Below are positions 11,655-30,264 of a stretch of 64,000 bases of DNA, in pieces. Origin of the DNA: an uncultured Pseudomonadales bacterium (GTDB lineage: Bacteria > Patescibacteriota > Microgenomatia > UBA1400 > PJMF01); assembly GCA_964574595.1 (NCBI GenBank), contig CAZNOF010000003.1, forward strand, positions 80,280-144,279, read 5' to 3'. Both the position numbers and the translations under genes were made by a program. The notes beneath the pieces were generated by a model. That model was not told where the DNA came from. It did not search any database and worked only from the letters and a program-made list of their open reading frames with translations. Position 1 is the stretch's first letter, and the number at the start of each line of letters is the position of its first letter.

Positions 11655-11994
11655 TATGATTCACAAATTATTAGCAGGCGGAGCACCAGCCGGACCAGAT
11701 TTTAATAAGTTTAACCCATTGGTTATTGACCAATCTCCAAACGCGAATACATTTAATAGCCCCGGTGGTGTTATTACCAAAGCTCTCGACTACGCCTTCC
11801 CCATTGCCGGCATGATTCTTTTTGTAATGATTTTATGGGGTGGTTTTGAGATGCTGTCTGGCGCTACTTCTGCCAAAGGCAAAGATGCTGGCAAACAACG
11901 AATCACTGCGGCAGTGATTGGTTTTGTCTTACTGTTCGTTTCTTACTGGATGGCTAAGCTGCTTGAGCTCATTTTTGGCATTAAGATTTTTTAA
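11644..11994 (+). CDS. T4SS-pilin-like small membrane protein (paralog)
   Basis: It carries the same motif as the other pilin paralogs: MILWGGFEMLSGATSAKGKDAGKQRITAAVIGFVLL. Its start overlaps the upstream gene; an alternative start exists at 11656. Confidence 0.5.
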   Translation: MGRNMIHKLLAGGAPAGPDFNKFNPLVIDQSPNANTFNSPGGVITKALDYAFPIAGMILFVMILWGGFEMLSGATSAKGKDAGKQRITAAVIGFVLLFVSYWMAKLLELIFGIKIF

Positions 11995-11997
11995 TCG

Positions 11998-12693
11998 TTA
12001 CTTCCCAAAATTTCGTTTTCTGTTGGAATAGTTTGCCAAGGCTTTGTCGAACTCTTTTGGAGTGAAGTCAGGCATGAGTACTGGAGTGTAAAACCATTCC
12101 GCATAGACGGCTTGCCACGGCATAAAGCCAGATGAACGCTCCTCTCCGCCGGTACGAATGATTAAATCGACATCTGGAATTCCCCGTGTATCAAGCAATT
12201 CGCTAAACTCCGCTTCTTGGATAGTTGCCAATTTTTGTGGAGGAATATTGTGAATGGCACGCAAAATTTCGTCTCGGCCGCCATAATTAAGCGCAAAAGT
12301 AACCGTAATCTTGTTATTATCTTTGGAAATTTCTTGCCAGTGCTTAGCACCTTTTTGAATATCTTCGTCAAACTTAGACATATCACCAATAGTTCTTAAA
12401 CGAACGCCCTTTTTATGGAGCGCTTCGCTTTGTTTCTGAAAAGCTTGGCGAAATAAATTCATCAGACCTGTCACTTCTGCTTCATCACGTTTCCAGTTTT
12501 CAGTACTAAATGCCCACAACGTTAAGTACATAATGTTCAGTTCAATGCAGCGATCAACCAATGGTTCAATCACTTTCTCCGTCACATAGGCATGACCTTG
12601 CAATGCAGCCAGCTTATTTTGCTTAGCCCACCTGCGATTGCCATCCATAATAATTCCCACATGAGCTGGGAGATGTTCTATATTATTCGTCAT
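11998..12693 (-). CDS. uppS: Isoprenyl transferase (undecaprenyl-diphosphate synthase)
   Basis: The N-terminus HVGIIMDGNRRWA and the C-terminal RTGGEERSSGFMPWQ motif are UppS hallmarks. Confidence 0.9.
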   Translation of the reverse strand: MTNNIEHLPAHVGIIMDGNRRWAKQNKLAALQGHAYVTEKVIEPLVDRCIELNIMYLTLWAFSTENWKRDEAEVTGLMNLFRQAFQKQSEALHKKGVRLRTIGDMSKFDEDIQKGAKHWQEISKDNNKITVTFALNYGGRDEILRAIHNIPPQKLATIQEAEFSELLDTRGIPDVDLIIRTGGEERSSGFMPWQAVYAEWFYTPVLMPDFTPKEFDKALANYSNRKRNFGK

Positions 12694-13540
12694 AAATCAC
12701 GGTTCCCTTCACTGATTGATTCATTAGAATTTGATATAAACGATCTGGTGCTAAACCAGAAATAATCCGTGATTGGATGCCGAGCTTGGCTAATTTTAGA
12801 GACTCTTCTACTTTCAAACCCATGCCTCCCGTGACATCAAAACCTTTGGTTTCAGTCAGAGCATGCTGTAAGTCTGGCCAATTTTGCGAACTAATATGTG
12901 GCACTACATTTTTATTGACATCATAAAAACCTTCAACTTCTGCCACATGGATGATTTGTTTGACTTGCCACTTTCGTTTGACTAACTCCTGACCTAAAAA
13001 TGCCAAAACTTCTTCTGTTGACCACACCGTACACCCTTTCACTACATCTACTAAAACATCACCATAGGTAATCGGTAATAACTGTTTTTTGAGATACTCT
13101 TCACAGACATCGCCACAAAATGTTTGGGCAATTCGGTTGGAACTGAGCACCATATTACTGGCTGCCAGCGTGACCGCCGGCTGACCCAATTTCAAAAACT
13201 GCTCGACCACAATTCTATTTAGTTGGGCTGCCACATCTTGAACCACAGCCATGCCGTAAACACTTTCACTGTCTTTGAACCCATCCATGGTTTGATATTT
13301 CGCAGCGGGTGGATGGGCAAAACTGCCAGAACCATGACCTACTAAGAATAATTCATCTGGCAGAGCGGTTTTGGCTTTGACGATTTCTGCTACCAGACGC
13401 CTTAACAACTCAGCGCGCAAAGCCATTGGTTTTTCTTTATCAGTGATAATGGAGCCACCTAATTTAATCAAGGTGATGGAAGGCGTAGACATATCGTAGT
13501 AGTAATAGTCGGAAAAAAGAGCGGAAATCACGCACACCAA
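12683..13540 (-). CDS. Amino-acid kinase family protein, most consistent with isopentenyl phosphate kinase (IPK/FomA-like)
   Basis: The LIKLGGSIITDK glycine loop sits at the N-terminus of the kinase fold. The likely true start is the ATG at 13492 (MSTPSITLIKLGGS). It is adjacent to and overlaps uppS, giving an isoprenoid context. Confidence 0.45.
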   Translation of the reverse strand: MVCVISALFSDYYYYDMSTPSITLIKLGGSIITDKEKPMALRAELLRRLVAEIVKAKTALPDELFLVGHGSGSFAHPPAAKYQTMDGFKDSESVYGMAVVQDVAAQLNRIVVEQFLKLGQPAVTLAASNMVLSSNRIAQTFCGDVCEEYLKKQLLPITYGDVLVDVVKGCTVWSTEEVLAFLGQELVKRKWQVKQIIHVAEVEGFYDVNKNVVPHISSQNWPDLQHALTETKGFDVTGGMGLKVEESLKLAKLGIQSRIISGLAPDRLYQILMNQSVKGTVIYDE

Positions 13541-13543
13541 AAA

Positions 13544-13894
13544 TTACTTTTTAGCGGCGTGCCCCAATACAGAAGAAAATCTGAAGAATAAGTACAGCAA
13601 CAAAATTTGCCAGTAAATACAGAAAAAGGTGATCCAATCGGATAAAAACACTAATCCATCACAACCCCAAAAGTTGGACACACTGCAAGAAAAGAAGATT
13701 CTCACCAGTGGCACCACTGCAAATCGCCAACCAACTGTCAAAACTGCCAAGACCAAACTCGGAAACAACGTCATCCAAGAGAAGACTTTTTCTTGCTGCA
13801 AACTCTGCATCGTCTGGTAAGGATGCAGCAACAAGCCCTGTCCAATCTCTCCAACAGAGTACACGAGCGAAGTAGTAAGGTGTTTGTAGTTCAT
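13544..13894 (-). CDS. Membrane protein, unknown function
   Basis: The 116-aa ORF is hydrophobic and Trp/Phe-rich. Confidence 0.3.
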   Translation of the reverse strand: MNYKHLTTSLVYSVGEIGQGLLLHPYQTMQSLQQEKVFSWMTLFPSLVLAVLTVGWRFAVVPLVRIFFSCSVSNFWGCDGLVFLSDWITFFCIYWQILLLYLFFRFSSVLGHAAKK

Positions 13895-14019
13895 CAGACT
13901 AGATTGTACCAGGTGATATAATATGTATCAAATTACTCATTACTTGCTTTACATTGCTGAATCAGATCTAAAGTGATGAGTAATTCATCTTTAATAAGTT
14001 AAGAAAGGTTGTGAATACG

Positions 14020-14778
14020 ATGAAGAAGTTCTGGATCATTTTCGTCCCAGTCCGAGAAAGTGGTGGATTTGGAGGGTGGGTACTTCTTGTTATCCTGATC
14101 ATTATTGGGATTGTAGGTATCGTGAATCAGAGTGGCTCTGGTCGAGGTCCCGCTCGTCAAGTAATTGTTACAGCAACTCCGACCATTTATGTTACTTTAG
14201 ACCCACAGGCTCAGGCAATTGAGGCAACAAAGACATTTATCAGTTCATACTCAGTCGTACAGACAATTACATCAAGAAGGCCACCTGAATGTATTGAAAC
14301 TTCTAAAATGAAGGGAATACTAACTCAGGTCGCATTTAACGCAACTGATAACTATTTTTCATTGGTCACTGAAGACGGTAACAAAACATATCTTCTCAGC
14401 TGGTTTTTCAACTCCAGAACTGGGCTCAACCAAGAGTATCATTGTGGCAATGATGTTCAAGAATTCAATGGCAAAATAACATACGTGCGTTACGGATACT
14501 TCGATCAATCAGGCACAGCAAGCATCCTTCACAAAGTAGTAAGAACCGACAATCAGGGTATCGCAACTTATGATTTCTCTAGCATGACCAACGACAACAG
14601 TCCTGTGACATTGAGGTCAGATGATCAAAGCAAATGGTATAGTGCATCTAACTACCAAGTTACTCAGACAATAAACTGGCTAGGAACCACAAATGGGATT
14701 GCATACGTTTCACCAGAAAAACGATTCCTCGTATACCAAACAACCAATGGGGAAATTAATATTGCCTATCAGCAATAA
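14020..14778 (+). CDS. Membrane-anchored extracytoplasmic protein, paralog A (unknown function)
   Basis: The ATG at 14020 (MKKFWIIF...) follows the RBS AAGAAAGG. The N-terminal TM is similar to the 15805 gene. An extended -10 GTGATATAAT lies at 13914-13922. Confidence 0.45.
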   Translation: MKKFWIIFVPVRESGGFGGWVLLVILIIIGIVGIVNQSGSGRGPARQVIVTATPTIYVTLDPQAQAIEATKTFISSYSVVQTITSRRPPECIETSKMKGILTQVAFNATDNYFSLVTEDGNKTYLLSWFFNSRTGLNQEYHCGNDVQEFNGKITYVRYGYFDQSGTASILHKVVRTDNQGIATYDFSSMTNDNSPVTLRSDDQSKWYSASNYQVTQTINWLGTTNGIAYVSPEKRFLVYQTTNGEINIAYQQ

Positions 14779-14851
14779 ATTTAAACTCGAAGCTTAACTT
14801 AACAAAACGCCAGGTGGTACCCTGGCGTTTTTCATATCTATTCTTAAAAAC

Positions 14852-15049
14852 TTACTTGAGGAAAATTCGCACGATCAATGTTGTAATCCCCGATAAAATC
14901 AGTAATGTCTGCCAAGGATACTTACCTATTAAGGAAGTAATTGGATCAATTTGCTTTGGTAGCCAACGGACGGTATTTAGCGGTGCCTGCAAATTAGCTT
15001 GATGTTGCAACTCATTTAAAAATTGCTGTTGTGATTTGGATTTGGTCAT
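14852..15049 (-). CDS. Putative membrane-anchored anti-sigma factor (small single-TM protein translationally coupled to the ECF sigma gene)
   Basis: It has a 4-nt ATGA overlap with the upstream sigma gene. The C-terminal TM is LLILSGITTLIVRIFL. Confidence 0.4.
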   Translation of the reverse strand: MTKSKSQQQFLNELQHQANLQAPLNTVRWLPKQIDPITSLIGKYPWQTLLILSGITTLIVRIFLK

Positions 15050-15573
15050 GTGCTTTCTACTCCATACAACTCTCTAAACTCATCTCTAGCTCTGAATAAA
15101 ATAGACTCCACTGACTTGACGGAACGACCGGTTTCTTTGGCAATTTGGGCAACTTTCTTCTTATCTAAGTACTTCATTAGCAGAATTTCTTTATATTCTT
15201 GATTCATATGCTGCAGAACTGAAATGACGTGTTGGGAGATTTCTTCTGGATGCTGAACTGGTTCGGTGGTTAAAAACTCAGACAGAGGCAGGGCTAAAAT
15301 AAACTTTTTGGCATACCGCTTCCGGTAATAATCGGCAACTTCATGGTGTGCCACATGCATCATCCAAGTCCAAATACTTGATTCACCACGGAAAAGTGGC
15401 AGCGATTTCAAACAACTTAAGAAAATATCCTGGGTGACTTCTTCTGCATCTGAGGCTGTCACCACTTTTTTGAGAACATGCCGATACATCTTTTGATGAA
15501 ACAGCTCATACCACTCCCGCACCGCTCTAGGAGAAGCCTGCTTTAACTGCTGGAGCAAAAGCTCTTCATTCAT
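15046..15573 (-). CDS. ECF-type RNA polymerase sigma-70 family factor
   Basis: Sigma region 2 reads DIFLSCLKSLPLFRGESSIWTWMMHVAHHEVADYYRKR. Region 4 has an HTH (KKKVAQIAKETGRSVKSVESILFRAR). Confidence 0.85.
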   Translation of the reverse strand: MNEELLLQQLKQASPRAVREWYELFHQKMYRHVLKKVVTASDAEEVTQDIFLSCLKSLPLFRGESSIWTWMMHVAHHEVADYYRKRYAKKFILALPLSEFLTTEPVQHPEEISQHVISVLQHMNQEYKEILLMKYLDKKKVAQIAKETGRSVKSVESILFRARDEFRELYGVEST

Positions 15574-15804
15574 AGGAGTAGTTTACCACTAGGAGGGTAT
15601 TGAAAGCTTCCAAGCCAGATTTTGATGTGTAGGAAATGCTGTTTTTCTAACTTTAGAAGTAAATTCTAATAAGAACTGATACACTGTGATATAATTTAAT
15701 TGCTTGTAGAAACAAAGTAATACCAGATGCGGTATTGAAAACTCAATTCCTGAGTTTATGTTCTACGAGGACCCTTTAACAAGTTAAGAGAGGTTAAAAA
15801 ACTG

Positions 15805-16653
15805 ATGCGTAAGTTTCTGGTAATTCTCATTCCGATCGAAGCTGGACCGCAAGATCCGGGCTGCCTATTAAGAACAATCTTCGGAATCGTGATTTGGGGA
15901 GCATTCTTTGTAATACTGTTTTCAGGGATGTTCAGTGGAAATCAAAATAACAGAAATTCTCAACTGGACAACACCCATCTATCTGTCCCAACATCTATCC
16001 CAACATTAGTTCCATTTGGAGCTCGGATCATTTCAAATCAGGTAAGGACGATAGTTGGAGTACCTGATATCGAAGTGACTGATTTCCAAGGACTACAATA
16101 CAATCTGAAAGAATCAGTAGCCTCAGAAGTTTCTTGGTCTCCAAATGGATCAAAGATATTGTATCGCGGAGAAGAAAACTCAATTCGTGTCGTGAATATA
16201 GATGGAACAGGAGACCATCAAGTTGTACATTCTACGCCAGGAGATATTCTGAGTTTTACCTGGAATGATGACGAACACGTACTCTTCAAGCATTGCCCTT
16301 TCGATCAGCAGCACCAGGTATTTAATTGTGAATTGCAGTACTCAAATAGCGTAAGCTTAGATGGTAGAAGCGTTGCCCCAGACGGTTTTACTAGCAGCGC
16401 TGTAAACTTTAACGACAACAGGGTCTCTTTCAAAAACCATACTCCCCTAAATAACTTCGGAAGAGTAGCTTTTGGACCATATGGCTTTGATTCTGTAGAA
16501 TGTCTATATTGTCACTTCTTGGCTTTTGTTACTTGGAACGAATCTCCTGGACAAACAGGAAATCTGTATGTCGCAAGGGATGTTTATATCAAAGATCCCA
16601 ATCCTAGTACAACTAGCACTGGAACGTATCTATCAATTAACGGAATAAACTAG
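15805..16653 (+). CDS. Membrane-anchored protein with TolB/PD40-like beta-propeller repeats, paralog B of the 14020 gene at its N-terminus
   Basis: SWSPNGSKILYRGEENSIRVVNIDGTGDHQVV is PD40-like. It has an RBS AAGTTAAGAGAGGTT and an extended -10 TGTGATATAAT at 15685-15695. A terminator hairpin follows at 16673-16705. Confidence 0.45.
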   Translation: MRKFLVILIPIEAGPQDPGCLLRTIFGIVIWGAFFVILFSGMFSGNQNNRNSQLDNTHLSVPTSIPTLVPFGARIISNQVRTIVGVPDIEVTDFQGLQYNLKESVASEVSWSPNGSKILYRGEENSIRVVNIDGTGDHQVVHSTPGDILSFTWNDDEHVLFKHCPFDQQHQVFNCELQYSNSVSLDGRSVAPDGFTSSAVNFNDNRVSFKNHTPLNNFGRVAFGPYGFDSVECLYCHFLAFVTWNESPGQTGNLYVARDVYIKDPNPSTTSTGTYLSINGIN

Positions 16654-16672
16654 ATTCTCTTTTCTTGTAGCA

Positions 16673-16705
16673 AAAAATGCCTCTATAAACGAGGCATTTT
16701 TATTA
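16673..16705 (+). terminator. Rho-independent terminator after the 15805 gene, preceding the pilin array
   Basis: The stem aaaatgcctc/gaggcatttt has a tataaac loop and is followed by a T-run. Confidence 0.6.
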
Positions 16706-16757
16706 ACTAATTAGTGCTTCTTGGCATAAAAAAAATAAAATGTAGTATACTAACTAG

Positions 16758-17174
16758 ATGAAGAAATCTGGGATTAGTTTTATTATTATCTCGATTACAG
16801 CAATTTTTCTTGCCCTTTCTTTTTTTGTACCTCAAACAGTATTGGCAGCTAACACAAATTGTGACCCAACCTCAGCAGGCTTGAAGATTGGAGACTGTTT
16901 ACAACTTAGCGAGGGTCAACCAGTTAGTAGTGTTTATGACAAACCAGCTGTTCTCGTTAACCTCCTCACCAGTAATATCTTCATTGCTGGCGGAATTATT
17001 CTCTTAGTGATGATCATTTACGCTGGCTTTCAATTCATTACTGGCGGAGCTAAAGGCATGGAACAGGCCAAAAGTGTGCTTGGTACAGCTTTAATGGGCT
17101 TTATTATTATGTTTATGGCTTACTGGATCTTGAGAATTATCAAAATTATAACTGGAGCAAACATCCTTTTTTAG
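16758..17174 (+). CDS. T4SS-pilin-like (TrbC/VirB2-like) small membrane protein, tandem paralog 1
   Basis: A signal-like N-terminal TM is followed by two TM helices with the family motif AGGIILLVMIIYAGFQFITGGAKGMEQAKSVLGTALMGFII. Confidence 0.6.
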   Translation: MKKSGISFIIISITAIFLALSFFVPQTVLAANTNCDPTSAGLKIGDCLQLSEGQPVSSVYDKPAVLVNLLTSNIFIAGGIILLVMIIYAGFQFITGGAKGMEQAKSVLGTALMGFIIMFMAYWILRIIKIITGANILF

Positions 17175-17192
17175 ATAGTGTAAAATAGTCAT

Positions 17193-17582
17193 ATGATTTT
17201 AACTTTACTAGCAGACAGCGTATTTGGAACAATTAATCCACCGGCCGGTGTAAAAGAATTTGATGCCTCGCCAGGAGCAAATGGTCTTGGAATCATCGTC
17301 TTCTTCTCCAACTTAATCAAAATCGGTACCGTTATTGCCGGAATTTTAGTCTTCGTCAACATTTTGATGGCAGGCTTTACCTACGTGAGTGCTGCTGGAG
17401 ATTCAGGCACGCCAGATAAAGTTAAAGATCAAATTCTGCACAGCGTGATTGGTTTAGCCATTATCGTCTTGTCTTACTTAATCATTGCCTTAATTAGTTT
17501 CGTCCTCTTCAAAGATCCAGGATATATCTTAAATCCAACCATTACCGGGCCAGGAACATCAACTGCGCCAACAGGACCATAA
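17193..17582 (+). CDS. T4SS-pilin-like small membrane protein, tandem paralog 2
   Basis: Motif: MAGFTYVSAAGDSGTPDKVKDQILHSVIGLAIIVLSY. Confidence 0.6.
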   Translation: MILTLLADSVFGTINPPAGVKEFDASPGANGLGIIVFFSNLIKIGTVIAGILVFVNILMAGFTYVSAAGDSGTPDKVKDQILHSVIGLAIIVLSYLIIALISFVLFKDPGYILNPTITGPGTSTAPTGP

Positions 17583-17965
17583 TGACATCAAGATTAATTG
17601 CTGCAGAAACCAAACTCGGCACCTTTGAACCACCATCTACCATTTTAAAATCTTCAGATTTAACATCTGGAGCAGGTGTAACCACCAAGTTAGAAGCCGT
17701 TCTCTCTGAATTCCTAGGTATCGTCACCATCGTGGCCAGTATTGCTTTGATTTTCTACTTTATTATCGGCACTTTAAACTGGATTACCTCAAATGGTGAT
17801 TCCGGTAAAATTCAAAAAGCTCGTGAAGCCATGATTCAATCCGTATCTGGAATGGTCCTCGTTGTCGCTGCCTACGGCTTGATTGGCTTAATTGGCAACT
17901 TCTTAGGTCTTCACATTCTTAACCCAGGCACTGCTCTCTTAAATATCGTGAATGGAACGCCATGA
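17582..17965 (+). CDS. T4SS-pilin-like small membrane protein, tandem paralog 3
   Basis: It is start/stop-coupled to the previous gene (ATGA overlap). Motif: IIGTLNWITSNGDSGKIQKAREAMIQSVSGMVLV. Confidence 0.6.
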   Translation: MTSRLIAAETKLGTFEPPSTILKSSDLTSGAGVTTKLEAVLSEFLGIVTIVASIALIFYFIIGTLNWITSNGDSGKIQKAREAMIQSVSGMVLVVAAYGLIGLIGNFLGLHILNPGTALLNIVNGTP

Positions 17966-18399
17966 AAAAACAGTTTTTAAAAACTCTTACCGTTACAACT
18001 TCTTTTATTGGAAGTTCTGTCATTTTGCCAGCTCAAATCTTTGCAGCCGGTATCACCAACCCAGCCATTGGCTCATTGGGTGATAGTTCAACCAAAGCAG
18101 AAAGTGGTAGTACCTTTACTGGCTACTTCGTCACGATTTGGAGAGCCTTAATTTTTGTGGGCGTTTTAGCCTTACTCTTCAACTTACTCAATGGTGGGCT
18201 TGACTGGATTTTAGCTGGTGGTGAAGCCGCCAAAATTCAAAAAGGCCGTGACAAAATGGTCCAATCAGTTATTGGTATGGTCATTTTAGCCGGATCATTC
18301 GTAATTATTTCTTACGTCAGTAGTCTCTTATTTAACTTTGACTTGCTGAACTTAACTGTTCCTACTGTAGGGAGCGCAGGCCCAACCGGTACTCCATAA
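17962..18399 (+). CDS. T4SS-pilin-like small membrane protein, tandem paralog 4
   Basis: It has an ATGA overlap with paralog 3. Motif: LNGGLDWILAGGEAAKIQKGRDKMVQSVIGMVIL. Confidence 0.6.
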   Translation: MKKQFLKTLTVTTSFIGSSVILPAQIFAAGITNPAIGSLGDSSTKAESGSTFTGYFVTIWRALIFVGVLALLFNLLNGGLDWILAGGEAAKIQKGRDKMVQSVIGMVILAGSFVIISYVSSLLFNFDLLNLTVPTVGSAGPTGTP

Positions 18400-18406
18400 C
18401 ATATCT

Positions 18407-18796
18407 ATGAAACACACTCTCTTAGCTCAAACGCTGAATTTTCGACAAGAAGCCACTACACAGCAACTTCCTAATGCCGATGGCAACTTAGGATCTGCTT
18501 TAAGTACCGTGATTACTGCTGTGATGGCAATTGGTGTTTTAGCCGCCTTCATCTACATCGTGATGGGTGCTTTTGAGTGGATCACATCTGGTGGTGAAAA
18601 AGGCAAAGTTGAGTCAGCCAGAAATAAGATCACTGGGGCAATTATTGGCTTAATCGTCTTAGCATCTGTCTTTGTAATCATTCTATTAGTTCAAAACTTC
18701 TTGGGCGTGCAAGTGTTTACACTTGGTGGCGCAGCTACAACAACTACCAATGGTGGTGGCGGCGGTGGTTCCAGAATGGTACCAACCCAGTTCTAA
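18407..18796 (+). CDS. T4SS-pilin-like small membrane protein, tandem paralog 5
   Basis: Motif: VMGAFEWITSGGEKGKVESARNKITGAIIGLIVL. It has a Gly-rich C-terminus. Confidence 0.6.
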   Translation: MKHTLLAQTLNFRQEATTQQLPNADGNLGSALSTVITAVMAIGVLAAFIYIVMGAFEWITSGGEKGKVESARNKITGAIIGLIVLASVFVIILLVQNFLGVQVFTLGGAATTTTNGGGGGGSRMVPTQF

Positions 18797-18843
18797 GAAT
18801 TTTTATTAATAAAGAATGAATAAATAGTAGATCTCGAGTGGGC

Positions 18844-18871
18844 TTGACAGTTGCTAGAGGACTACTATAAT
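18844..18871 (+). promoter_or_regulatory. Near-consensus sigma70 promoter for pilin paralog 6
   Basis: TTGACA at 18844-18849 is followed by a 16-nt spacer and TATAAT at 18866-18871. The RBS AAGGAG and the GTG at 18902 lie downstream. Confidence 0.6.
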
Positions 18872-18901
18872 TAAATTACAGTAATTCAAAAAGGAGCCTT
18901 T

Positions 18902-19297
18902 GTGCAAATTTCATCCAGTATTCAACGAAAAATCGGTGTCGCCACCGGAGTCGCAGGTGCATTGTTAGCGAGTGTATCACCAGCTTTTGCTGCTACCACC
19001 ACTCAACAAATCAACTTGACCCCAAACACACCAGGCTTCTTCACCAACGCCAATGACTTAATTTCTAAATTACTTTCCATCGTGATGGTGATCGGCGTGA
19101 TCTTAGTGTTCGCCTTCTTAGTACTCGGTGGTATTGAGTACATCACTTCTGGTGGTGAAAAAGGTAAAACAGAAGCAGCTCGTAACAAAATTACTTCCGC
19201 TGTTATTGGTTTGATCATCTTAGCTTCTTCATATGCTATCTTGACTATCGTCTTAGGATTCTTAGGTACCAACACTACAGATATCTTGAAATTCTAA
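18902..19297 (+). CDS. T4SS-pilin-like small membrane protein, tandem paralog 6; candidate major pilin because it has its own promoter and terminator
   Basis: A GTG start is preceded by AAGGAG (18891-18896). Motif: VLGGIEYITSGGEKGKTEAARNKITSAVIGLIIL. A near-consensus sigma70 promoter sits at 18844-18871 and a perfect 12-bp-arm terminator at 19317-19350. Confidence 0.6.
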   Translation: MQISSSIQRKIGVATGVAGALLASVSPAFAATTTQQINLTPNTPGFFTNANDLISKLLSIVMVIGVILVFAFLVLGGIEYITSGGEKGKTEAARNKITSAVIGLIILASSYAILTIVLGFLGTNTTDILKF

Positions 19298-19316
19298 AAA
19301 TTAAATGAATATGTTA

Positions 19317-19350
19317 CCCCCTCCGAGGCTCCTCGGAGGGGGTTTTTGTT
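19317..19350 (+). terminator. Strong rho-independent terminator after pilin paralog 6
   Basis: A perfect 12-nt inverted repeat, ccccctccgagg/cctcggaggggg, is followed by TTTTTGTTT. Confidence 0.75.
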
Positions 19351-19391
19351 TCTGATCACTGTCTGGTATAATTTCTGATTATTGAGCCTTT

Positions 19392-19994
19392 ATGAAATCA
19401 ACGTTTCTCGCCTTCTGTTTACTTGTTCTTACTTTTTTAGGTAGCGCTCATCTTGTTAATCAAGTTCAAGCAGCCGGCGATGTGGTCATTGCTACACAGT
19501 CAGGCGCGACTTACTTAACCACAACGACCACAACCACCACAGTAGAGACTGTTACCACGACACCAACACCGATCGCTACTCTGTCTGGCACGCCAATTCC
19601 AATTGCTCAGGGACACGTTTTCTTGCCACCTGGATTTTTCCCAAGTGCTAATGCCTTAGTAAATGATCTATTTAAAGTGATCATGATCATTGCTGTAATT
19701 TTGGTGTTTGCGTATTTGGTGCTTGGTGGCTTCCAGTACATTACTTCCGGAGGAGAAAAAGGCAAAACGGAAGCAGCTAGAAATAAAATGATTTCTGCAA
19801 TCGTAGGATTAATCATTGTGGCTTCTTCATATGCCATTTTAACAATTGTCCTTAACTTTATTGGTTACAGAGACGTAACTGGCTTTTTACAAGTTGGCCC
19901 AACTGTTACCCCAACACCAGTCGCCCCGCTCGTCTCACCATCACCTCTGGTTACACCTACGCCTAGTTCCTTACTCAAACAACTGATAAAATAG
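19392..19994 (+). CDS. T4SS-pilin-like membrane protein, tandem paralog 7, with poly-Thr insert and Pro/Thr-rich C-terminal extension
   Basis: Motif: VLGGFQYITSGGEKGKTEAARNKMISAIVGLIIV. It has a TTTTTTTVETVTTTPTP linker and a PTVTPTPVAPLVSPSP tail. Confidence 0.6.
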   Translation: MKSTFLAFCLLVLTFLGSAHLVNQVQAAGDVVIATQSGATYLTTTTTTTTVETVTTTPTPIATLSGTPIPIAQGHVFLPPGFFPSANALVNDLFKVIMIIAVILVFAYLVLGGFQYITSGGEKGKTEAARNKMISAIVGLIIVASSYAILTIVLNFIGYRDVTGFLQVGPTVTPTPVAPLVSPSPLVTPTPSSLLKQLIK

Positions 19995-20004
19995 AAAAGC
20001 ACCC

Positions 20005-20466
20005 ATGAAAAAGCTCATTTTAGACACAGTCCGTATCTCCACTTTGCTTTTACCTCTCTTGATCTTGATTTTTGCCCCAACCGTCTCTGCGCAAACAGTA
20101 CAGTGGACTGGTGTATGTGTAGGCAAATCAATGACATCAGGTACTTCTGGCGGAAATGTAGATGCTGGCGATGTAGCTACAATACAAGGCTTTCAATGTT
20201 TAATTGGTAATGTCTTAATGATCTCAATTACCGGAATTGGTTTAATTGGCTTTGTGATGTTTATTGTCGGCGCCTTTCATTACATGTTGTCTGGTGGCAA
20301 TGCCAAAGGCACTGAGCAAGCCAAGAACACGATTACCTATGCCGTGATCGGTCTAGTTGTAGCGTTATCTGCGTTCATTATTTTGAACTTGGTTTCTAGC
20401 TTCACAGGCGTGAAGAGTATCTTGAACTTCACCATCTCACCTCCAAGTACCACCCCACTGAACTAA
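20005..20466 (+). CDS. T4SS-pilin-like small membrane protein, tandem paralog 8
   Basis: Motif: IVGAFHYMLSGGNAKGTEQAKNTITYAVIGLVVA. Confidence 0.6.
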   Translation: MKKLILDTVRISTLLLPLLILIFAPTVSAQTVQWTGVCVGKSMTSGTSGGNVDAGDVATIQGFQCLIGNVLMISITGIGLIGFVMFIVGAFHYMLSGGNAKGTEQAKNTITYAVIGLVVALSAFIILNLVSSFTGVKSILNFTISPPSTTPLN

Positions 20467-20510
20467 TTCTCCAAAACAAAGTCGTCTCGACTCGCGATAT
20501 AATACGGATC

Positions 20511-23500
20511 ATGATGTTTTATCGCCAGAGACGCTTCGTCATCTTTAGCTTGGTTTTGTTTCTGTCTGTGCTCTTGCTGGCCAAATTTGCTTCCCCTTTA
20601 TATTTAAAAGCTCAATCTTCTGCGACATCAGCGTTGGCGGCCTTAGCAGATCCTGGTGGCGACGGTGGCAGCAATGTGGGTACCAATATCGGTGTGGGAG
20701 ATGTTACCGCACAAGTAGACATCATTGATAACGTCATCGCTCGAAACGGGGCGGGAGCAGGCTTTCCAGTTACGGTGTTACTCTATGAAAACAGTATGCC
20801 AGATGACGTGAAGAAAATTGCTGATGCCATGAAGAGACACAGCTTTTTCCCGATTGTGCGTATCGACCATATTTGTGACCACTCCGTTTCAGATTCACAG
20901 CAAATCGTGAGCATCGTCAGACAAGAATTTGGAGCTGACACGGTCATCGCTTTTGGCAATGAGATCAACAACCAAGAAATTGAGTGTAAAGATTGGGCAA
21001 AGTATGAGCAAAATTACCGCGCCGTTCAAAGCGGCATCACTGCCCCATCTGCTATCGACTTCTACAATGGAAATCCGGCATTTAAGTTTGATAAATTGCC
21101 TGGTAGCTTACAAGGTTTGATTAATGGCTCAAGCATCAGAGCTGCCAACGCCTACGGCTGTGTGGGTACGAAAGCAGCAGGTTGTAATGATGGTGCTATG
21201 GGCACATACACCACTGGTTTAACTGGCACAGATGGCAAGAAACTCTATGTCACTGAGTTCAGTCTTTCTCCAGAAGGAAGAGTGGCCGATGCACCAGATA
21301 CCGATCTCACCAAAGTACTCTACTTCATTAAAAAATTTGCTCCTCAAGTTCGAGCAGAGAAAATCACTCCTTTAATTAGAAACGTGTGTAATGGCGACGG
21401 TGAGTGGCTGATTTACGTCAAAGGCCAAGTTTTCACCATGCACGGCCAAAACGTCACCAAGAGTTGTGCCGGCACCAAAGTTCCTTTCTACGAATTCAAC
21501 ATTCAGCGCGAAACAAGTCAAAATGTGGTCAATAATTTTTACGATGAGTACTCTGTGGCCTGCTTACCAAAAGAGGAATACACGCTTGGCTTTGAAAACG
21601 ATCCAGCCAAATGTGGTGATCCAAATTCTGGCTTGATCTGTCCGATTGATTGGAAAAGCTGGAATATCCCTGGCAAATTAAAAATGACGGCAGATGGGAA
21701 GACCTATGGTCTTTTCAGAAACCAATCGGCTGTAGAAGCACGATCAGGCGGAAACACGCCTGCAAAAAGAGGTGAATCTGTAGAGGCGTTAATTTCTCAA
21801 CCTAACCCAGACGCGCCGACATCTACTGCAGTTCCAACCACCACGACTTCAGATAAATCAAATGCCTCTCTCAAACAAGCACCTATGTATAATCTGACCA
21901 CTTTGTCACAGCAGTGCAGCTTTGTGGTGGATAAATTAAAAGCTGTCCACGAACTATGTAAGCCTGAAAATCGAGTTGAAACATATAAAACTGCAGGAGA
22001 AGTCTCACCTCAGGACTCCACTGAAGATTGTGGTCTGAACACCAATATTCCAAGTACCAGCAAACCGTATGATCAGGAAAGCATGCTTGCGGCTTTCCAA
22101 AGTAAAAATATGACCTGCGAAGATTTAGCAGATTCACAAAAACCAGAAGATAGATCATTTCTGTCAGACTTACTTAAAGTGAATGTCTCAATGGAAACAG
22201 CCTACCGTCCGGCCTTTATCGTAGCGGTTACTACATTTGATGCTCCAAATAGTACGGACAACGTCACGACCCACACATCAGATGACGCCGGCGTAGAACC
22301 AGTCACTGGTCAAAAATTCCAAGTCATTGACTATCTAGAAGTGAAAGTACCGGCACTTGCTTCTGACTTCTTGCCAACCAAGAGTCCAGAACACAGCTCT
22401 TCTCTCATCAATCCAGACAGAAATAATTACCGCGACCCAATGCAACTGACGGCGGACGTGCTGAGAACCAGTGAAGACCAATCAGATGTGTTCCAACAGG
22501 AAATAGATCAACGAAAGGTCCTCCGTGAATTTGAAAAGCGCGGTTCAATAAATGGCAGCATTATTGGCGACAACGGGAACATGCCGATCTTCTGTAATGT
22601 AGGCGGCAAGCTGTATGCCAACTGTGACATCCCAGCCCAAACGGGAGACAATTATGTAGACCAGGTCCCACCAGCACTCGTTAAGTTCATCAACGCCAGC
22701 GCGACCGTTCAAAACCTAGGAGATTGGGATTCTTTGCCCTGCAACGCCCGAGAAGTTGACATTTATGGTGAAGAAAAAAACAAAGCTCGAATTGCAGAAC
22801 AAGGAAAAACAATCTTAGCCCAACTTAAAGCCCAACCAATTGGTCCATATCAAAAAAGAACTGAAATATCCACAAATATCTCAGTTAAGGTCAAAGATAT
22901 TACTAAAGGTGGCAATATCACCACTCACACCGAGCTATACTTCGTAACGCCACAACGTTACGCAATGCAGTACGCGCAAAATAGCTTCTTATCTTTCTTA
23001 ACCACAGGTGTGAAACAAGGCTTCATTGATCCTCAAGTCAAAGCTGACGTGTATAACCCAACCAAATTTAGTCCATTATTAAAGAGTGAATTGGCTAAAA
23101 CCTTAACTGGCCGTGAAGTGAAAACTGGCGCCTACAGACTTGAAGCTGGCACTCTGGCTCCCACTGCTCCAGGAGCCACCCCAGTACCAACCACCAACAA
23201 GAAAATGGTTGATTTATTTGGCTTAATTAATGACACCAGTGACTTTGCCTACACTCAAAGCATTTTCTGGCGAGTAGCTGGCCAAGTAGCTAGCTTACCA
23301 AGTCGAATGCTAGCCTTAGTTAACTTACGCGATGGCTCACCGATGTATGACTACACCCGCGGATGTACTGGAAATTACGCCACAGATGACTGGTTTACTG
23401 GCAACTGTCTGAGAGCACCAGACAACGCTCAGGCAGCTTCTCCATCTGCCGGAACAACGGGCAACGTCTGTATTGAAACAAAGATTGATGACCCCGCGGT

Positions 23501-24014
23501 GCTGGCCGATTATGCTGCCAAGTTAAAGGACTATTTGGGCCAAGCCTCTACTCTAGACTTATGGACCAGATACTTTGCTGGATACCTGCCAGGAGCAACG
23601 CCTTACTTGTTTAGTGTGAATGATGCTCGTTGTGACGCTTCACAACCCTGCTATGACAAAGTCATTGATACAGCAGTGGCGCACAAGATCAATCCATACT
23701 TAGCAATTGCGATTGCCCTAAACGAAACTGGTGGTTTCCGCAGTAACCAGGCTGACGCTTCCGGGCCTCACTTTGGCTGTGGTGTGAACTTAGATCCAAA
23801 TGGCCCAACTATTGGCTTTGGCACTATTCCAAGCAAGTTAAACTGTATGGTCGGGGCGTTTGATAACTATGAAAACACCGGCTTAGATGCCAATGCCGCA
23901 CTGACTAAATATGGATATGCCAATGGATTTAAGAACCAGAACCTCACCAAAATTATAGGCATTATCAGCCATCAAACATACGCAGGAAACTGTACTGGAT
24001 CAGTTGAAAACTAA
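20511..24014 (+). CDS. Large secreted protein (1167 aa) with C-terminal lysozyme-like / lytic-transglycosylase-like domain (VirB1-analogous cell-wall hydrolase candidate)
   Basis: It has an N-terminal signal/TM. The C-terminal segment at about 23650-23830, VIDTAVAHKINPYLAIAIALNETGGFRSNQ, resembles the catalytic Glu-containing helix of lysozyme-like transglycosylases. The rest of the protein is unassigned. Confidence 0.5.
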   Translation: MMFYRQRRFVIFSLVLFLSVLLLAKFASPLYLKAQSSATSALAALADPGGDGGSNVGTNIGVGDVTAQVDIIDNVIARNGAGAGFPVTVLLYENSMPDDVKKIADAMKRHSFFPIVRIDHICDHSVSDSQQIVSIVRQEFGADTVIAFGNEINNQEIECKDWAKYEQNYRAVQSGITAPSAIDFYNGNPAFKFDKLPGSLQGLINGSSIRAANAYGCVGTKAAGCNDGAMGTYTTGLTGTDGKKLYVTEFSLSPEGRVADAPDTDLTKVLYFIKKFAPQVRAEKITPLIRNVCNGDGEWLIYVKGQVFTMHGQNVTKSCAGTKVPFYEFNIQRETSQNVVNNFYDEYSVACLPKEEYTLGFENDPAKCGDPNSGLICPIDWKSWNIPGKLKMTADGKTYGLFRNQSAVEARSGGNTPAKRGESVEALISQPNPDAPTSTAVPTTTTSDKSNASLKQAPMYNLTTLSQQCSFVVDKLKAVHELCKPENRVETYKTAGEVSPQDSTEDCGLNTNIPSTSKPYDQESMLAAFQSKNMTCEDLADSQKPEDRSFLSDLLKVNVSMETAYRPAFIVAVTTFDAPNSTDNVTTHTSDDAGVEPVTGQKFQVIDYLEVKVPALASDFLPTKSPEHSSSLINPDRNNYRDPMQLTADVLRTSEDQSDVFQQEIDQRKVLREFEKRGSINGSIIGDNGNMPIFCNVGGKLYANCDIPAQTGDNYVDQVPPALVKFINASATVQNLGDWDSLPCNAREVDIYGEEKNKARIAEQGKTILAQLKAQPIGPYQKRTEISTNISVKVKDITKGGNITTHTELYFVTPQRYAMQYAQNSFLSFLTTGVKQGFIDPQVKADVYNPTKFSPLLKSELAKTLTGREVKTGAYRLEAGTLAPTAPGATPVPTTNKKMVDLFGLINDTSDFAYTQSIFWRVAGQVASLPSRMLALVNLRDGSPMYDYTRGCTGNYATDDWFTGNCLRAPDNAQAASPSAGTTGNVCIETKIDDPAVLADYAAKLKDYLGQASTLDLWTRYFAGYLPGATPYLFSVNDARCDASQPCYDKVIDTAVAHKINPYLAIAIALNETGGFRSNQADASGPHFGCGVNLDPNGPTIGFGTIPSKLNCMVGAFDNYENTGLDANAALTKYGYANGFKNQNLTKIIGIISHQTYAGNCTGSVEN

Positions 24015-24020
24015 CTGAAA

Positions 24021-24914
24021 TTAACTTCGGGAACCTTCAGCGGGCGTGTATTCTTGAGGCACTTTTTTTGATTCTACTTTTTTGACTTCATTTTTTACTG
24101 GTTTATTTATGACGGATTGATGGGCTAAATTTGCAGCAGTGAGCATACTCTTAGATCGAGAAACTCGCCGACCACCAGCACGAAGCAGTTTTGAGACGAT
24201 TTCAAATGTATCAGCGGTTGTTGCCAATGATTGCATTTTATCCGTTGCCATCTCAATGCCGGTAATTAAGTTGGTGGCAATATCCCCCGTTATTTCCACG
24301 CCTAGTTCTTGCAACAGGTAGGCCATCACTTCTGATGTTGAAGCAGCTCCCATGGTACTGACTTTAATCGAGCCAAAGGGTGTTTCGTAACTATTCACAC
24401 TAATCGTGATTGAGTCCTCGTAAAGCTGCTCATAACCTTCGTAAAGCGCGTTCAACGAGTCCAAACTGGACACGCCAACTAAGAAAATAGCGTCGGCAGA
24501 GGCACCTGAGTAAGAAAACTCTACGGTTTTTGAATCAAGTGGTTTTGAGTCTTTGCGTGGTTGAATAATTAAGCGAAATTTCTTGGCTTCTTCGTCAATG
24601 TTATAACTGACTTTATCGACCATATCTTCTTGATAATCAAAAGAAATTTCTAAGTTCTTATTGCCCATTTCTTTGGATGTTTTTTCTACTCCGGAAATTT
24701 GAGAAAACTCATGAGAAGGCTTGGTGGGACAAAGCAAAAGACTACTCTTTCCTAATGACAACAGCCCGTCGTGTAAAGCCACTGCCGAGGCAACTTGATC
24801 AACGCTGGCTTGATTGGAATAAATGACTAAAATAGATTTGGCCTCAGAAACGGTATGTTGGATGGTTTGGACTTGATCAGGTGTAAGCATATGGATTCTG
24901 TCTACTATAACCAA
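24021..24914 (-). CDS. Hypothetical cytoplasmic protein; weak, unverified resemblance to a DHH-family phosphoesterase fold lacking catalytic residues
   Basis: This is a convergent 297-aa ORF. Only a loose architecture similarity to NrnA-like proteins is visible, and no DHH or GGGH motifs are present. Confidence 0.3.
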   Translation of the reverse strand: MVIVDRIHMLTPDQVQTIQHTVSEAKSILVIYSNQASVDQVASAVALHDGLLSLGKSSLLLCPTKPSHEFSQISGVEKTSKEMGNKNLEISFDYQEDMVDKVSYNIDEEAKKFRLIIQPRKDSKPLDSKTVEFSYSGASADAIFLVGVSSLDSLNALYEGYEQLYEDSITISVNSYETPFGSIKVSTMGAASTSEVMAYLLQELGVEITGDIATNLITGIEMATDKMQSLATTADTFEIVSKLLRAGGRRVSRSKSMLTAANLAHQSVINKPVKNEVKKVESKKVPQEYTPAEGSRS

Positions 24915-24999
24915 CTCTATCTCACTAATTCAAGGGGGAAGGAGTATGTAGCAAATTACTCCTTTGACCAGACATAAAATAGACTGTAGAATATGAGTT

Positions 25000-26655
25000 G
25001 TGAAAAAATGGTTCTCGATACTTTTTCTATCCCTCTTTGTGCTCATTTCTTTTGCTCGCCCAGTTAGTACGTTTGCTCAAGTAACGTGTCCAGTAGGAAC
25101 ACCTCCCGGTCAAATTGGTCAGAATCCAACTTGTTCCGGTTGTGCACCAGGATTAATTGTCGGTGCTGCTAGTAAATGTATGACTCCGGCGCAACTTCAA
25201 ACAAGTCAATGGACCATCCCAGTCATGCAACAAATTGACAAGGGCCGAGACGATCAAGAAGCAAACAACCCAAACTTGCGTGGAACTGGTTTCGATATCT
25301 TATCAACAGTGGTCGGTGGTTTAGGACAAATTGTTTTAACGGGCTCAGATAAAAAAGGTACTTTAACCGGTGACTCTGGTGTAACCAGTGCTGCCAAAAT
25401 GATTGGTATGCTCTACGTTCCTCCAGCCACTTCTCAAGAGTACATTGCCGATGTTTTGAAAGACGCCGGCGTGGCAACCCCAGCCTATGCGCAAGGATTA
25501 GGATTTTCAGCATTAGCTCCAGTACTTGAGACCTGGAAAATTTTCCGAACAGTCGCCTACTTCTTCTATGTGGTCATCTTCTTAATTATTGGATTCATGA
25601 TTATGTTCCGCCAAAAAATTGGGAGTCAAACCGTCGTAACTGTTCAACAGGCATTACCAAAACTCTTAATCTCTTTGATCGCCGTGACTTTCTCATACGC
25701 TATTGCTGGTTTCATGATTGAGGTGATGTATTTGGCGATGTCATTCATCGTCAACGTATTTGCCTCTGGCACATTGGGTGCAGAAAAAATTAATGGCCAA
25801 ACCATTCAGCAGTTCGGATCAAACAGTAATATCTTCAACATCGCTGGCATTATTATCAGTGGTGGCTTCCAGAACACGGTCAGTAATTCCGTGGGCAACA
25901 TGGTGAACGGTGTCTTAGGCATTCAACCAGATCAAGCGGGCGCTATCTTAGGCAGTATCACCGGCTTAGCAGCTGTGGTGGTCTTTGCCATTGCCCTCCT
26001 CTTCAGTCTCTTTAGATTATTCTTTGAACTTTTGAAAACCTACATCACGCTCATCATTATGATCGTGACCGCACCAGTTGCTTTGATGCTTGGCGCTTTA
26101 CCAGGCAACAACGCTTTTTCAAGTTGGTTGAAAGGGTTGTTCTTTAACTTAGCCGTCTTCCCAACTGTGTTATTAACTATCGTGATGGCCTTCTTGCTCC
26201 AAACCAGTATTTCAAATAACGGTGGCTTCTTACCTCCATACATTGGTGGCGTAGGAACAGCCGGATCAGTCGCCCCTCTCTTAGGATTGGGTGTCTTACT
26301 CGTTATTCCAGATATCGTCACTAAAGTGAAAAAGATGGCTCCAGCAGGACCATTTGATGAGTTTGCCAATAAAGCTGCAGCCGCTGTCAAACAAGGTTGG
26401 AAAGGTGGAGAGCTGGTTCCAGGACTTGGCTTTACAGACACCAGAAAACTTCCACTCGGTGGCTTAAGTGGTCAAAACGTTGTAACCAAACCATTTACAT
26501 CTGGATACGGTTTAGCCAAGGATTTGACTGGCAAAGTGGCGGCTGGTGGAGTTGGCAATGTCTTGCCATTTACTAGACGTGTTACACCTCCTCAAAAGAC
26601 AACTATTGATGAGAATAAGAATATGCCTGATCCAAGTCGAAGAAATAGAGTCTAA
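25000..26655 (+). CDS. Polytopic membrane protein, VirB6/TrbL-like T4SS channel component candidate
   Basis: It has a signal peptide, a Cys-containing extracytoplasmic N-domain, then at least six hydrophobic helices (FFYVVIFLIIGFMIMF, LISLIAVTFSYAIAGFMIEVMYLAMSFIV, and others). The topology is typical of VirB6/TrbL. Confidence 0.5.
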   Translation: MKKWFSILFLSLFVLISFARPVSTFAQVTCPVGTPPGQIGQNPTCSGCAPGLIVGAASKCMTPAQLQTSQWTIPVMQQIDKGRDDQEANNPNLRGTGFDILSTVVGGLGQIVLTGSDKKGTLTGDSGVTSAAKMIGMLYVPPATSQEYIADVLKDAGVATPAYAQGLGFSALAPVLETWKIFRTVAYFFYVVIFLIIGFMIMFRQKIGSQTVVTVQQALPKLLISLIAVTFSYAIAGFMIEVMYLAMSFIVNVFASGTLGAEKINGQTIQQFGSNSNIFNIAGIIISGGFQNTVSNSVGNMVNGVLGIQPDQAGAILGSITGLAAVVVFAIALLFSLFRLFFELLKTYITLIIMIVTAPVALMLGALPGNNAFSSWLKGLFFNLAVFPTVLLTIVMAFLLQTSISNNGGFLPPYIGGVGTAGSVAPLLGLGVLLVIPDIVTKVKKMAPAGPFDEFANKAAAAVKQGWKGGELVPGLGFTDTRKLPLGGLSGQNVVTKPFTSGYGLAKDLTGKVAAGGVGNVLPFTRRVTPPQKTTIDENKNMPDPSRRNRV

Positions 26656-26678
26656 TTTAAATTTCTAGTAGGACTGCC

Positions 26679-26867: not shown

Positions 26868-26954
26868 AGTACATTGTTTTTCAACAAAAACCTAAATTCA
26901 GATGTTTTTTTGTGAGTTTTTTTGCGTCAAGAGAAATCAATCGTATTTTAGTGA

Positions 26955-30248: not shown

Positions 30249-30264
30249 ATGAGTCTAACTTAAT

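Follow-up and report, generated by a model that had tools for sequence, protein, structure and literature searches.

We analysed a 64,000-nucleotide (nt) stretch of contig CAZNOF010000003.1, hereafter called the window, in which ten genes of one divergent family encode proteins resembling the VirB2 pilins of type IV secretion systems (T4SS). Eight of them (P1 to P8) are consecutive open reading frames (ORFs) of 127-200 amino acids (aa) on the + strand, spanning 16758-20466, and two upstream copies (U1 and U2) occupy 10359-11994. An earlier note, made from the sequence alone, had described eight tandem pilin-like genes here and two more copies upstream, one at 11644-11994 and one forming the C-terminus of 10359-11654; both upstream copies were found, as were the eight ORFs, all on the + strand and at the coordinates given for them. 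The ten genes are listed here together with the two expression signals of P6; bit scores refer to the Pfam family PF18895 (T4SS_pilin).

10359-11654, + strand: U1, with a signal peptide, a Cys-rich ectodomain of ~270 aa and a C-terminal pilin-anchor module; PF18895 match at residues 354-419
11644-11994, + strand: U2, small leaderless pilin, partner of U1; 39.4 bits; alternative ATG at 11656
16758-17174, + strand: P1, with a signal peptide and two Cys in the N-terminal part; 18.9 bits
17193-17582, + strand: P2, leaderless; 23.1 bits; leave-one-out E 2e-21
17582-17965, + strand: P3, leaderless, its start overlapping the P2 stop; 29.8 bits
17962-18399, + strand: P4, with a signal peptide, its start overlapping the P3 stop; 17.7 bits
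18407-18796, + strand: P5, leaderless, with a Gly-rich C-terminal tail; 32.5 bits; 48% identity to P6
18844-18871, + strand: sigma-70 promoter of P6, TTGACA-16-TATAAT, 12/12 consensus positions
18902-19297, + strand: P6, candidate major pilin, with a signal peptide ending AFA↓A; 39 bits
19316-19343, + strand: intrinsic terminator 3' of P6, its T run preceded by a 12-bp stem that includes 9 G-C pairs
19392-19994, + strand: P7, a P6-derived paralogue with a Thr-rich N-terminal and a Pro/Thr-rich C-terminal extension
20005-20466, + strand: P8, with a signal peptide and two Cys in the N-terminal part; 32.7 bits

PF18895, the model with which the earlier note had suggested a comparison, is the best Pfam match for all ten copies, and six of the ten exceed its gathering threshold (26.6 bits, for a hairpin of ~70 residues) with scores of 29.8-39.4 bits. 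When a hidden Markov model (HMM) built from the ten copies was run against all 637 six-frame ORFs of at least 40 aa in the whole window, it recovered exactly those ten, the runner-up having an E-value of 1.8. With each copy left out of the model in turn, every copy was still recovered at E 1e-10 to 9e-36 and the best unrelated ORF had E > 1; the four copies below the Pfam threshold came back at E 1e-10 to 2e-21 (P1 at 1.4e-14, P4 at 1.1e-19). The window therefore contains a genuine family with exactly ten members.

Mean identity among the paralogues of the window is 24.6% (27% in the core) and the maximum is 54%, between P6 and P7, which are 72% identical in the core. The alignment of all ten has a single invariant column, the G of VIGL. 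P6 carries the full GGIEYITSGGEKGKTEAARNKITSAVIGL motif, which had been proposed as the common core of the family; for the ten copies together this did not stand, the motif being a consensus that is exact in P6 and P7 only, with 22 of 29 positions matched in P5 and 6-16 of 29 in the other seven. A signal-like transmembrane (TM) segment had likewise been ascribed to the eight tandem copies. Among the ten it is present in P1, P4, P6, P7, P8 and U1, in which the hydrophobic segment ends in AxA and may be cleaved, and absent from P2, P3, P5 and U2. These leaderless copies start with M-x(2-3)-[ST]-L-[LI]-A (MILTLLA, MTSRLIA, MKHTLLA and MIHKLLA, respectively), which may be a very short leader or the remnant of one. 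The start motifs lie at 17193-17215, 17582-17608, 18407-18430 and 11656-11676 and are retained in orthologues; the orthologue of U2 in the related assembly L004 carries a full signal peptide ending AFA↓Q. The gaps from P1 to P8 are 18, -1, -4, 7, 105, 94 and 10 nt, which bears out the coupled or close spacing reported for five junctions, and the Thr and Pro-Thr extensions of 19392-19994 are present in the translated ORF.

The array was compared with those of close relatives (assemblies L001, L002/L003 and L004) and in a wider set of 85 loci, consisting of the best 80 of 191 stretches from a scan of representative genomes (see below), the earlier relatives and the window. The close relatives have the layout of the window: U1-U2 beside uppS, a divergent sigma factor gene of the extracytoplasmic function (ECF) type, the array, and then a gene for a protein of ~1170-1250 aa. 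The best cross-genome match of each window copy is the gene at the same position, and positional orthologues are 49-85% identical (53-63% for P1, 59-82% for P2, 49-79% for P3 and 64-74% for P8), as against ~25% between paralogues. The exceptions are both in L004, from which P7 is missing and in which the U1 ectodomain is more diverged (34%). All 21 loci with at least six pilin ORFs, namely the window and 20 other genomes, share one order: U1, U2, P1, P2 (often doubled), P3, P4, P5, P6 (sometimes doubled or accompanied by P7) and P8. U2 abuts P1 in three of the 21 (L018, L019 and L051), with 1.7-5.8 kb between them in the other 18, and because the order is shared across all 21 loci, U1 and U2 belong to the same ancestral set as P1-P8.

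For all ten copies the proportion of nonsynonymous differences (pN) is far below that of synonymous ones (pS). The nominal ratio of the corresponding rates, dN/dS, is 0.04-0.22, but because dS is saturated (0.6 to >2, with two values undefined) this ratio is only rough, and we use the qualitative result, pN << pS. The array contains no DNA repeats or gene-conversion tracts exceeding 80 nt at 70% identity, on which ground cassette switching was rejected, and no long repeats, inverted repeats or silent cassettes were found in it. These ancient, ordered orthogroups, together with purifying selection and the lack of repeats, argue against recent duplication and against cassette-type antigenic variation. 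The earlier note had preferred functional diversification to recent duplication, and low paralogue identity, collinear order and pN << pS agree with it there; antigenic variation, which it had named as one form that diversification might take, finds no support in orthogroups that are fixed and offer no substrates for recombination. The conserved pattern, as read from these sequence comparisons, fits distinct, non-redundant roles for the ten copies.

P6 is the only copy of the ten in which a perfect promoter, a strong Shine-Dalgarno sequence (AAAGGAG) and a terminator occur together; its mature protein is predicted to be ~101 aa long. An identical 12/12 promoter lies 5' of the P6 orthologue in L001, L002 and L004, and these assemblies have G+C hairpins 3' of that gene, although with different stem sequences. 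Each of 325 pilin-domain ORFs from the 85 loci was assigned to the type of the window copy that it matched best. Promoters with at least 11 of 12 consensus positions were found at 10/24 P6-type genes versus 1/301 genes of other types (Fisher p 7e-12), hairpin-plus-T-run terminators at 14/24 versus 11/301 (p 5e-12) and the two jointly at 8/24 versus 0/301 (p 3e-10), p-values that overstate independence because the loci compared are related. P6 is 50-70% identical to proteins of metagenome-assembled genomes (MAGs) named Pacebacteria, Parcubacteria and other Patescibacteria, and its pS against L001 (0.42) is the lowest of the ten, the other nine having values of 0.60-0.76. Judging from these signals, P6 is likely to be produced in bulk as the main structural subunit, and they lend backing to a division into major and minor pilins that the earlier note had raised. 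P1-P5 would then form a coupled operon and P7-P8 a separate unit, both supplying minor subunits. An extended -10 element (TGgTATAAT) is present at 19365-19373; as it sits between the P6 terminator and P7, it suggests a third transcription unit made up of P7, P8 and the gene for a 1167-aa protein that follows them.

The U1 ORF opens at 10239, and its orthologues align from the Met at 10359, where the signal peptide starts. The public annotation of U1 (471 aa, P0001) begins 40 codons 5' of this orthologue-backed start, from which a normal signal peptide results. The anchor module, at residues ~306-431, consists of the stretch LCxQIP..CxxC..WTAxGCIPT with four invariant Cys, then a TM hairpin, then an IPGFG end. 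The last ~125 residues of U1 are 50-68% identical to the C-termini of >100 proteins (250-514 aa) whose N-terminal parts differ. With an HMM of the module, 86 ORFs reach 100-194 bits, whereas no other pilin ORF exceeds 60 bits and the range between is empty; in 65 of the 86 cases a pilin-domain ORF of the U2 type (82-543 aa) lies directly 3' of the U1-type gene. The ectodomains of at least 80 aa, 83 in number, fall into 22 BLAST groups (one of 46, two of 6, six pairs and 13 singletons), that of the window belonging to a group of six members; the anchors of these 83 proteins are mutually alignable, with a median identity of 52%.

The fusion of a pilin module to a Cys-rich ectodomain had been called unusual, and this proved not to be so. 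A pattern scan of the GTDB species-representative genomes found 191 stretches that encode a U1-fusion relative, and a search with the anchor module among 1.84 billion representatives of 50%-identity clusters gave 264 matches at E <= 1e-30; at E <= 1e-3 it gave 11,797 matches, which correspond to the wider pilin family. On this sequence evidence the U1 fusion is a common, conserved component of the lineage's system. The AlphaFold2 (AF2) model of U1 has a mean pLDDT of 70.6, a moderate confidence, and in a Foldseek search with this model no match reached E <= 0.001, which leaves the ectodomain with no counterpart in the PDB. A role of U1 as a tip protein or adhesin would be a reasonable conjecture. 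Many of the genomes with the U1 module (L005-L084) are titled 'uncultured Pseudomonadales bacterium', one 'Methylococcaceae' and one 'candidate division TM6'; these titles look like MAG mislabelling because the gene content of those genomes is patescibacterial.

The resemblance to VirB2 was examined in a set of 55 sequences, made up of P6 and 54 relatives (47 database homologues and seven other window copies). PF18895 is matched by all 55, NF045849 (Mbov_0395 family pilin-like conjugal transfer protein) by 53 (best E 2.9e-10), PF04956 (TrbC/VirB2) by 21 at E <= 0.01 (best E 2.8e-8) and CagC by one. The window copies themselves fall below the PF04956 cut-off of 27.9 bits (16.7 for P6, 16.6 for U2), and all are below the curated NF045849 cut-off (27.4 bits for P6 against 40). 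Relatives that bear names are assigned to Woesebacteria, Pacebacteria, Microgenomates and 'Patescibacteria group'; the names Woesebacteria and Pacebacteria suggest that the window, whose own species is not among the best 80 loci of the genome scan, belongs to Microgenomatia. At the level of sequence, and with PrgI/VirB3, TrsD-like and VirB4 genes downstream, the VirB2-like identity proposed earlier is upheld. In the AF2 model of P6 (pLDDT 82.6), a signal helix and a disordered stretch precede two hairpin helices at 50-82 and 87-120; the hairpin core has a pLDDT >90, and basic residues lie beside the loop. A Foldseek search with this model had no hit at E <= 0.001 and placed the Aeropyrum conjugation pilin 8dfu only 12th and 17th. 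When a profile made from the P6 alignment was run against PDB sequences, it picked up no pilin, its two matches (E > 0.2) being due to chance. We regard the fold as compatible and do not count it as evidence because helical hairpins are too generic to discriminate.

The T4SS context of the array is seen in the genes that surround it, the principal ones being these:

14852-15049, - strand: 65-aa protein with one TM segment, divergent from the array
15046-15573, - strand: ECF-type sigma factor with Sigma70_r2/r4_2 matches, divergent from the array
20511-24014, + strand: secreted or membrane-anchored protein of 1167 aa with one N-terminal TM segment and a weak, sub-threshold C-terminal Glucosaminidase match (E 0.0012)
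25000-26655, + strand: 551-aa protein with a signal peptide and six TM segments (hydropathy)
35790-40184, + strand: 1464-aa membrane protein with four TM segments and a C-terminal Peptidase_M23 domain (E 2e-9), a peptidoglycan hydrolase
41213-42571, + strand: PrgI/VirB3-like protein, PF12666 PrgI at 31.6 bits, over the gathering score
42574-43542, + strand: TrsD-like protein akin to the N-terminal portion of VirB4; NF041427 TrsD at E 2.5e-5
43554-45704, + strand: VirB4 ATPase; TraG P-loop at E 5.9e-25, CagE_TrbE_VirB at E 1.4e-6

PrgI/VirB3, the TrsD-like gene and VirB4 thus lie downstream of the array on the same strand, followed by dnaA (45852-47558, directly downstream of VirB4), dnaN, rnpA and yidC; the locus is chromosomal, in a bacterium with a small genome. 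P8 is 12 ORFs and P1 19 ORFs upstream of VirB4, which was recognised by its domain matches. The TrsD-like protein also matches the N-terminal region of Mollicutes VirB4 (E 4.5e-11), both of its NCBIfam matches being under the curated cut-offs. The PrgI/VirB3-like protein is unusually long (452 aa), with a weak C-terminal match to a CarboxypepD_reg-like (Ig-like) domain (E 6e-4). The 1167-aa protein, whose position after the array is taken by a gene for 1169-1250 aa in L001, L002 and L004, is a candidate cell-wall hydrolase with a VirB1-like role, as its domain match suggests. The 551-aa protein, a candidate VirB6-like channel subunit by its hydropathy, has no family match in the Pfam and NCBIfam searches. 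Among the large neighbouring ORFs (20511-35793 and 40211-41191), Pfam at E <= 1 and NCBIfam gave nothing usable beyond the weak glucosaminidase and TrsD-like matches. The sigma factor and the small gene beside it are also found 5' of P1 in L001, L002 and L004, and they are a candidate regulator pair of the array.

The interval 11998-15573 (- strand) encodes, in the window and in L001, L002 and L004, an undecaprenyl-diphosphate synthase, an amino-acid-kinase-family protein, the ECF sigma factor and the small single-TM protein, with additional mevalonate-pathway genes in L004; a link of this interval to pilin glycosylation or regulation would be speculation. Two membrane-anchored genes, 14011-14778 and 15805-16653, are missing at the corresponding positions in L001 and L002, and one of them sits between the sigma factor and P1. 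They were considered as possible paralogues and rejected, only their first ~29 residues being alike (MKKFWIIFVPV/MRKFLVILIPI; BLAST E 0.009). In the middle of the T4SS locus, 26955-33734 (- strand) and 33952-35793 encode four large proteins (1097, 665, 443 and 613 aa) that are soluble, lack TM segments and match no family. The 665-aa one contains a stretch of coiled coil, and all four might act as effectors or as cytoplasmic components of the machine.

Arrays of this kind have been described before. The available part of PMC12102498 (Quinonero-Coronel et al. 2025) reports 441 VirB2 arrays of 2-11 pilin genes, with a mean identity of 25% and a maximum of 54%, commonest in Microgenomatia and Saccharimonadia, and a Patescibacteria-specific T4SS related to the monoderm MPF-FATA type (VirB4, TrsD, PrgI/VirB3 and VirB6) that often lies by dnaA and usually lacks a relaxase. 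An array is defined there as 2-11 pilin genes in tandem or one non-pilin gene apart, within ~20 coding sequences of a Patescibacteria-clade virB4, and the window array, with eight contiguous genes (gaps -4 to 105 nt) and a separate pair, fits this definition. VirB4, a PrgI/VirB3-like and a TrsD-like protein, the mark of an MPF-FATA-related system, are all present, the TrsD match lying below its cut-off. In PF18895 membership, divergent tandem genes, proximity to virB4 and dnaA, and the lack of a relaxase nearby, the window agrees with the published arrays, and it differs in nothing essential from them as far as the accessible text describes them; it is one more instance of that kind. Beyond what the accessible parts of PMC10633639 and PMC12102498 contain are the fixed, ordered orthogroups, the P6 promoter and terminator, and the anchor module of the large Cys-rich proteins.

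The genes can also be set against better-known pilins. The predicted layout, in six copies a putative signal peptide and then two hydrophobic helices with a short basic loop, would resemble that of the diderm VirB2/TrbC/TraA pilins, which are likewise encoded with VirB4 and VirB3. In contrast, the mature proteins of the window, at ~100 aa, exceed those pilins in length and have an N-terminal extension that is disordered; four copies are leaderless, and there are ten paralogues rather than one. The window yielded neither a VirB5 tip protein nor an outer-membrane complex or cyclase, the host is monoderm, and polymerisation is something we infer. Type IV pili and type II secretion system (T2SS) pseudopili follow the same logic of one major subunit with conserved low-abundance paralogues, sometimes bearing a large adhesive domain, but this is an analogy only: family and machine are unrelated, and the window pilins have no class III leader and no PilB/PilC. 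Indeed, the class III leader (G↓F(T/S)LIE) was not found at the N-terminus of any of the ten copies, and no type IV pilus family is among their significant Pfam matches.

A closer relation is found in other monoderm systems. A tblastn search of plasmids with P6 gave a single record. A similar locus is carried by NZ_CP062975.1 (L085), an 898-kb replicon of Pontibacillus sp. ALD_SL1 (Bacillota). It contains, at 11782-21335, a tandem pair of pilin-like genes, which the window HMM matches at E 7e-18 and 1e-15; next come a large membrane protein (779 aa), a small PrgI-like one, TrsD, VirB4 and an M23 peptidase. For the TrsD-like protein of the window (30%, E 4e-27) and for its VirB4 (37% over 587 aa, E 1e-132) the best matches in the plasmid set are on this replicon, the VirB4 there being of the CD1110 family. 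The window pilins resemble the Mbov_0395 family from integrative and conjugative elements (ICEs) of Mollicutes and the Pontibacillus pair, and with Pontibacillus the window also shares PrgI-like, TrsD, VirB4 and M23 proteins. Pontibacillus has two copies where the window has ten, and the Mollicutes and Pontibacillus loci are on mobile elements or a megaplasmid, whereas that of the window lies by the chromosomal origin. The NF045849 matches and the Pontibacillus locus suggest, as far as sequence goes, that pilin-like genes belong natively to some members of the monoderm T4SS family and that the pilin came with the monoderm T4SS; co-option from diderm systems is left open in the available part of PMC12102498.

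Taking these observations together, we consider it likely that the ten genes encode VirB2-like subunits of an extracellular tube or short conduit built by the T4SS, with P6 as the major subunit, eight minor subunits, and U1 as the bearer of an anchored ectodomain. Its topology, its polymerisation, the major and minor roles and the contact with a host we infer as follows. Each subunit would enter the membrane as a hairpin of two helices whose ends both face outward, the short basic loop GG(D/E)KGK..ARNK lying inside. A VirB4-driven machine with PrgI/VirB3, the TrsD-like protein, a polytopic VirB6-like protein and wall hydrolases would extract the subunits, which would stack into a tube or short conduit touching the host cell of what is probably an epibiotic bacterium. 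P6 would be the abundant subunit, and P1-P5, P7, P8 and U2 would be specialised subunits of low abundance, serving for example in initiation, at the tip or in surface decoration. U1 would present its variable Cys-rich ectodomain on a conserved pilin-type anchor, probably at a unique position such as the tip.

A conjugative-type pilus would be expected to be about as wide as a tube that has been seen in another patescibacterium. There, cryo-electron tomography showed an 8.6-nm tube between parasite and host, which the text of PMC11880426, in the part available, does not assign to the T4SS. The pilin series of the saccharibacterium Southlakia epibionticum is essential for epibiotic growth, according to the accessible part of PMC10633639 (Wang 2023), and the same is reported for Saccharibacteria in PMC12857230.

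Several points weigh against the proposal of an extracellular tube or conduit. We know of no organism in which a filament of these proteins has been seen, and the T4SSs of monoderms do not as a rule make a pilus. Four of the ten copies score under the Pfam gathering threshold (17.7-23.1 bits; E 8e-5 to 4e-3), the promoter and terminator calls are consensus scans over phylogenetically related loci, and the saturation of dS leaves the estimate of selection a qualitative one. No relaxase or type IV coupling protein domain was found in the 49 larger window ORFs that were scanned.

A bolder extension of the tube proposal, which we offer tentatively and think doubtful, is that U1-type proteins are host-recognition elements analogous to a VirB5 or tip adhesin, that their ectodomains set host range, and that the kit forms a composite multi-pilin T4SS filament. 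The U1 anchor would dock at one fixed position of the machine, and the swappable Cys-rich ectodomains (at least 22 unrelated groups among 83) would set the range of hosts. One major and about eight minor VirB2-like subunits together with U1 would make a multi-pilin filament of the T2SS or type IV pilus kind, but built by a T4SS. To our knowledge, such an architecture is undescribed for any T4SS.

It is also conceivable, although we judge it unlikely, that the proteins remain in the membrane as parts of a T4SS channel or stalk. Small two-helix proteins of Gram-positive conjugation, such as TraB of pIP501 and its orthologues, are essential for transfer and make no pilus. The machinery here is of monoderm type (PrgI, a TrsD-like protein and a CD1110-like VirB4), the pilins match a family from ICEs of Mollicutes, whose wall-less mycoplasmas are not known to make conjugative pili, and TraB_pIP501 has the same layout, a cleaved signal followed by two antiparallel TM helices with a short loop (PMC9083827); the fold evidence does not tell the two readings apart. 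However, ten conserved paralogues with diversified extracellular parts (the Thr/Pro-rich P7, the Cys-rich U1) fit a channel poorly, a consensus promoter and terminator reserved to a single paralogue suit a polymer of many copies, and many relatives match TrbC/VirB2 directly.

We hold it to be very improbable that the array serves as a store of antigenic or host-range variants which, by switching or recombination, would be displayed one at a time. This has been suggested for Anaplasma and Bartonella, which have multiple VirB2 paralogues. For Patescibacteria arrays the idea is raised in the available text of PMC12102498, and divergence in the window does peak in the exposed N-terminal parts of the proteins. 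Yet each of the copies is a complete gene that has its own start, is kept as a positional orthologue in the same order in 20 other genomes, and is under purifying selection. None of the repeats or silent cassettes that switching would draw on were found, and the translational coupling or near-coupling at five junctions implies co-expression. Hardly credible at all is the alternative that had been named as a refutation of the pilin assignment, that these are generic two-TM proteins (holin-like or bacteriocin-immunity) which look pilin-like by composition: short hydrophobic proteins do match many membrane families weakly, and four copies miss the Pfam threshold, but no holin or immunity family appears among the Pfam matches at E <= 1, PF18895 and NF045849 match consistently across the 55 relatives, and linkage to VirB4, PrgI and TrsD is kept in this locus as it is in a Bacillota replicon.

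Patescibacteria account for a large share of uncultured bacterial diversity. Only one species has been examined genetically, and in it life on the host depends on the T4SS and its pilin series; the comparisons made here sharpen the question of what such a system builds and moves. Since Wang 2023 and Quinonero-Coronel 2025 already describe such arrays in their available parts, this locus is a further instance of a published kind, and its value lies in the fixed orthogroups, the major-pilin candidate and the anchor module. The arrays appear as a fixed, ordered kit of about ten different subunits, not as a variable reservoir, and the P6-type orthogroup is predicted to be the bulk component of any filament. 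The link of these pilins to genes of Mollicutes ICEs and Bacillota suggests arrival with the monoderm T4SS, the alternative in the literature, as far as its accessible text goes, being a loan from diderms. One defined anchor module bears the variable ectodomains, which are obvious candidates for host recognition.

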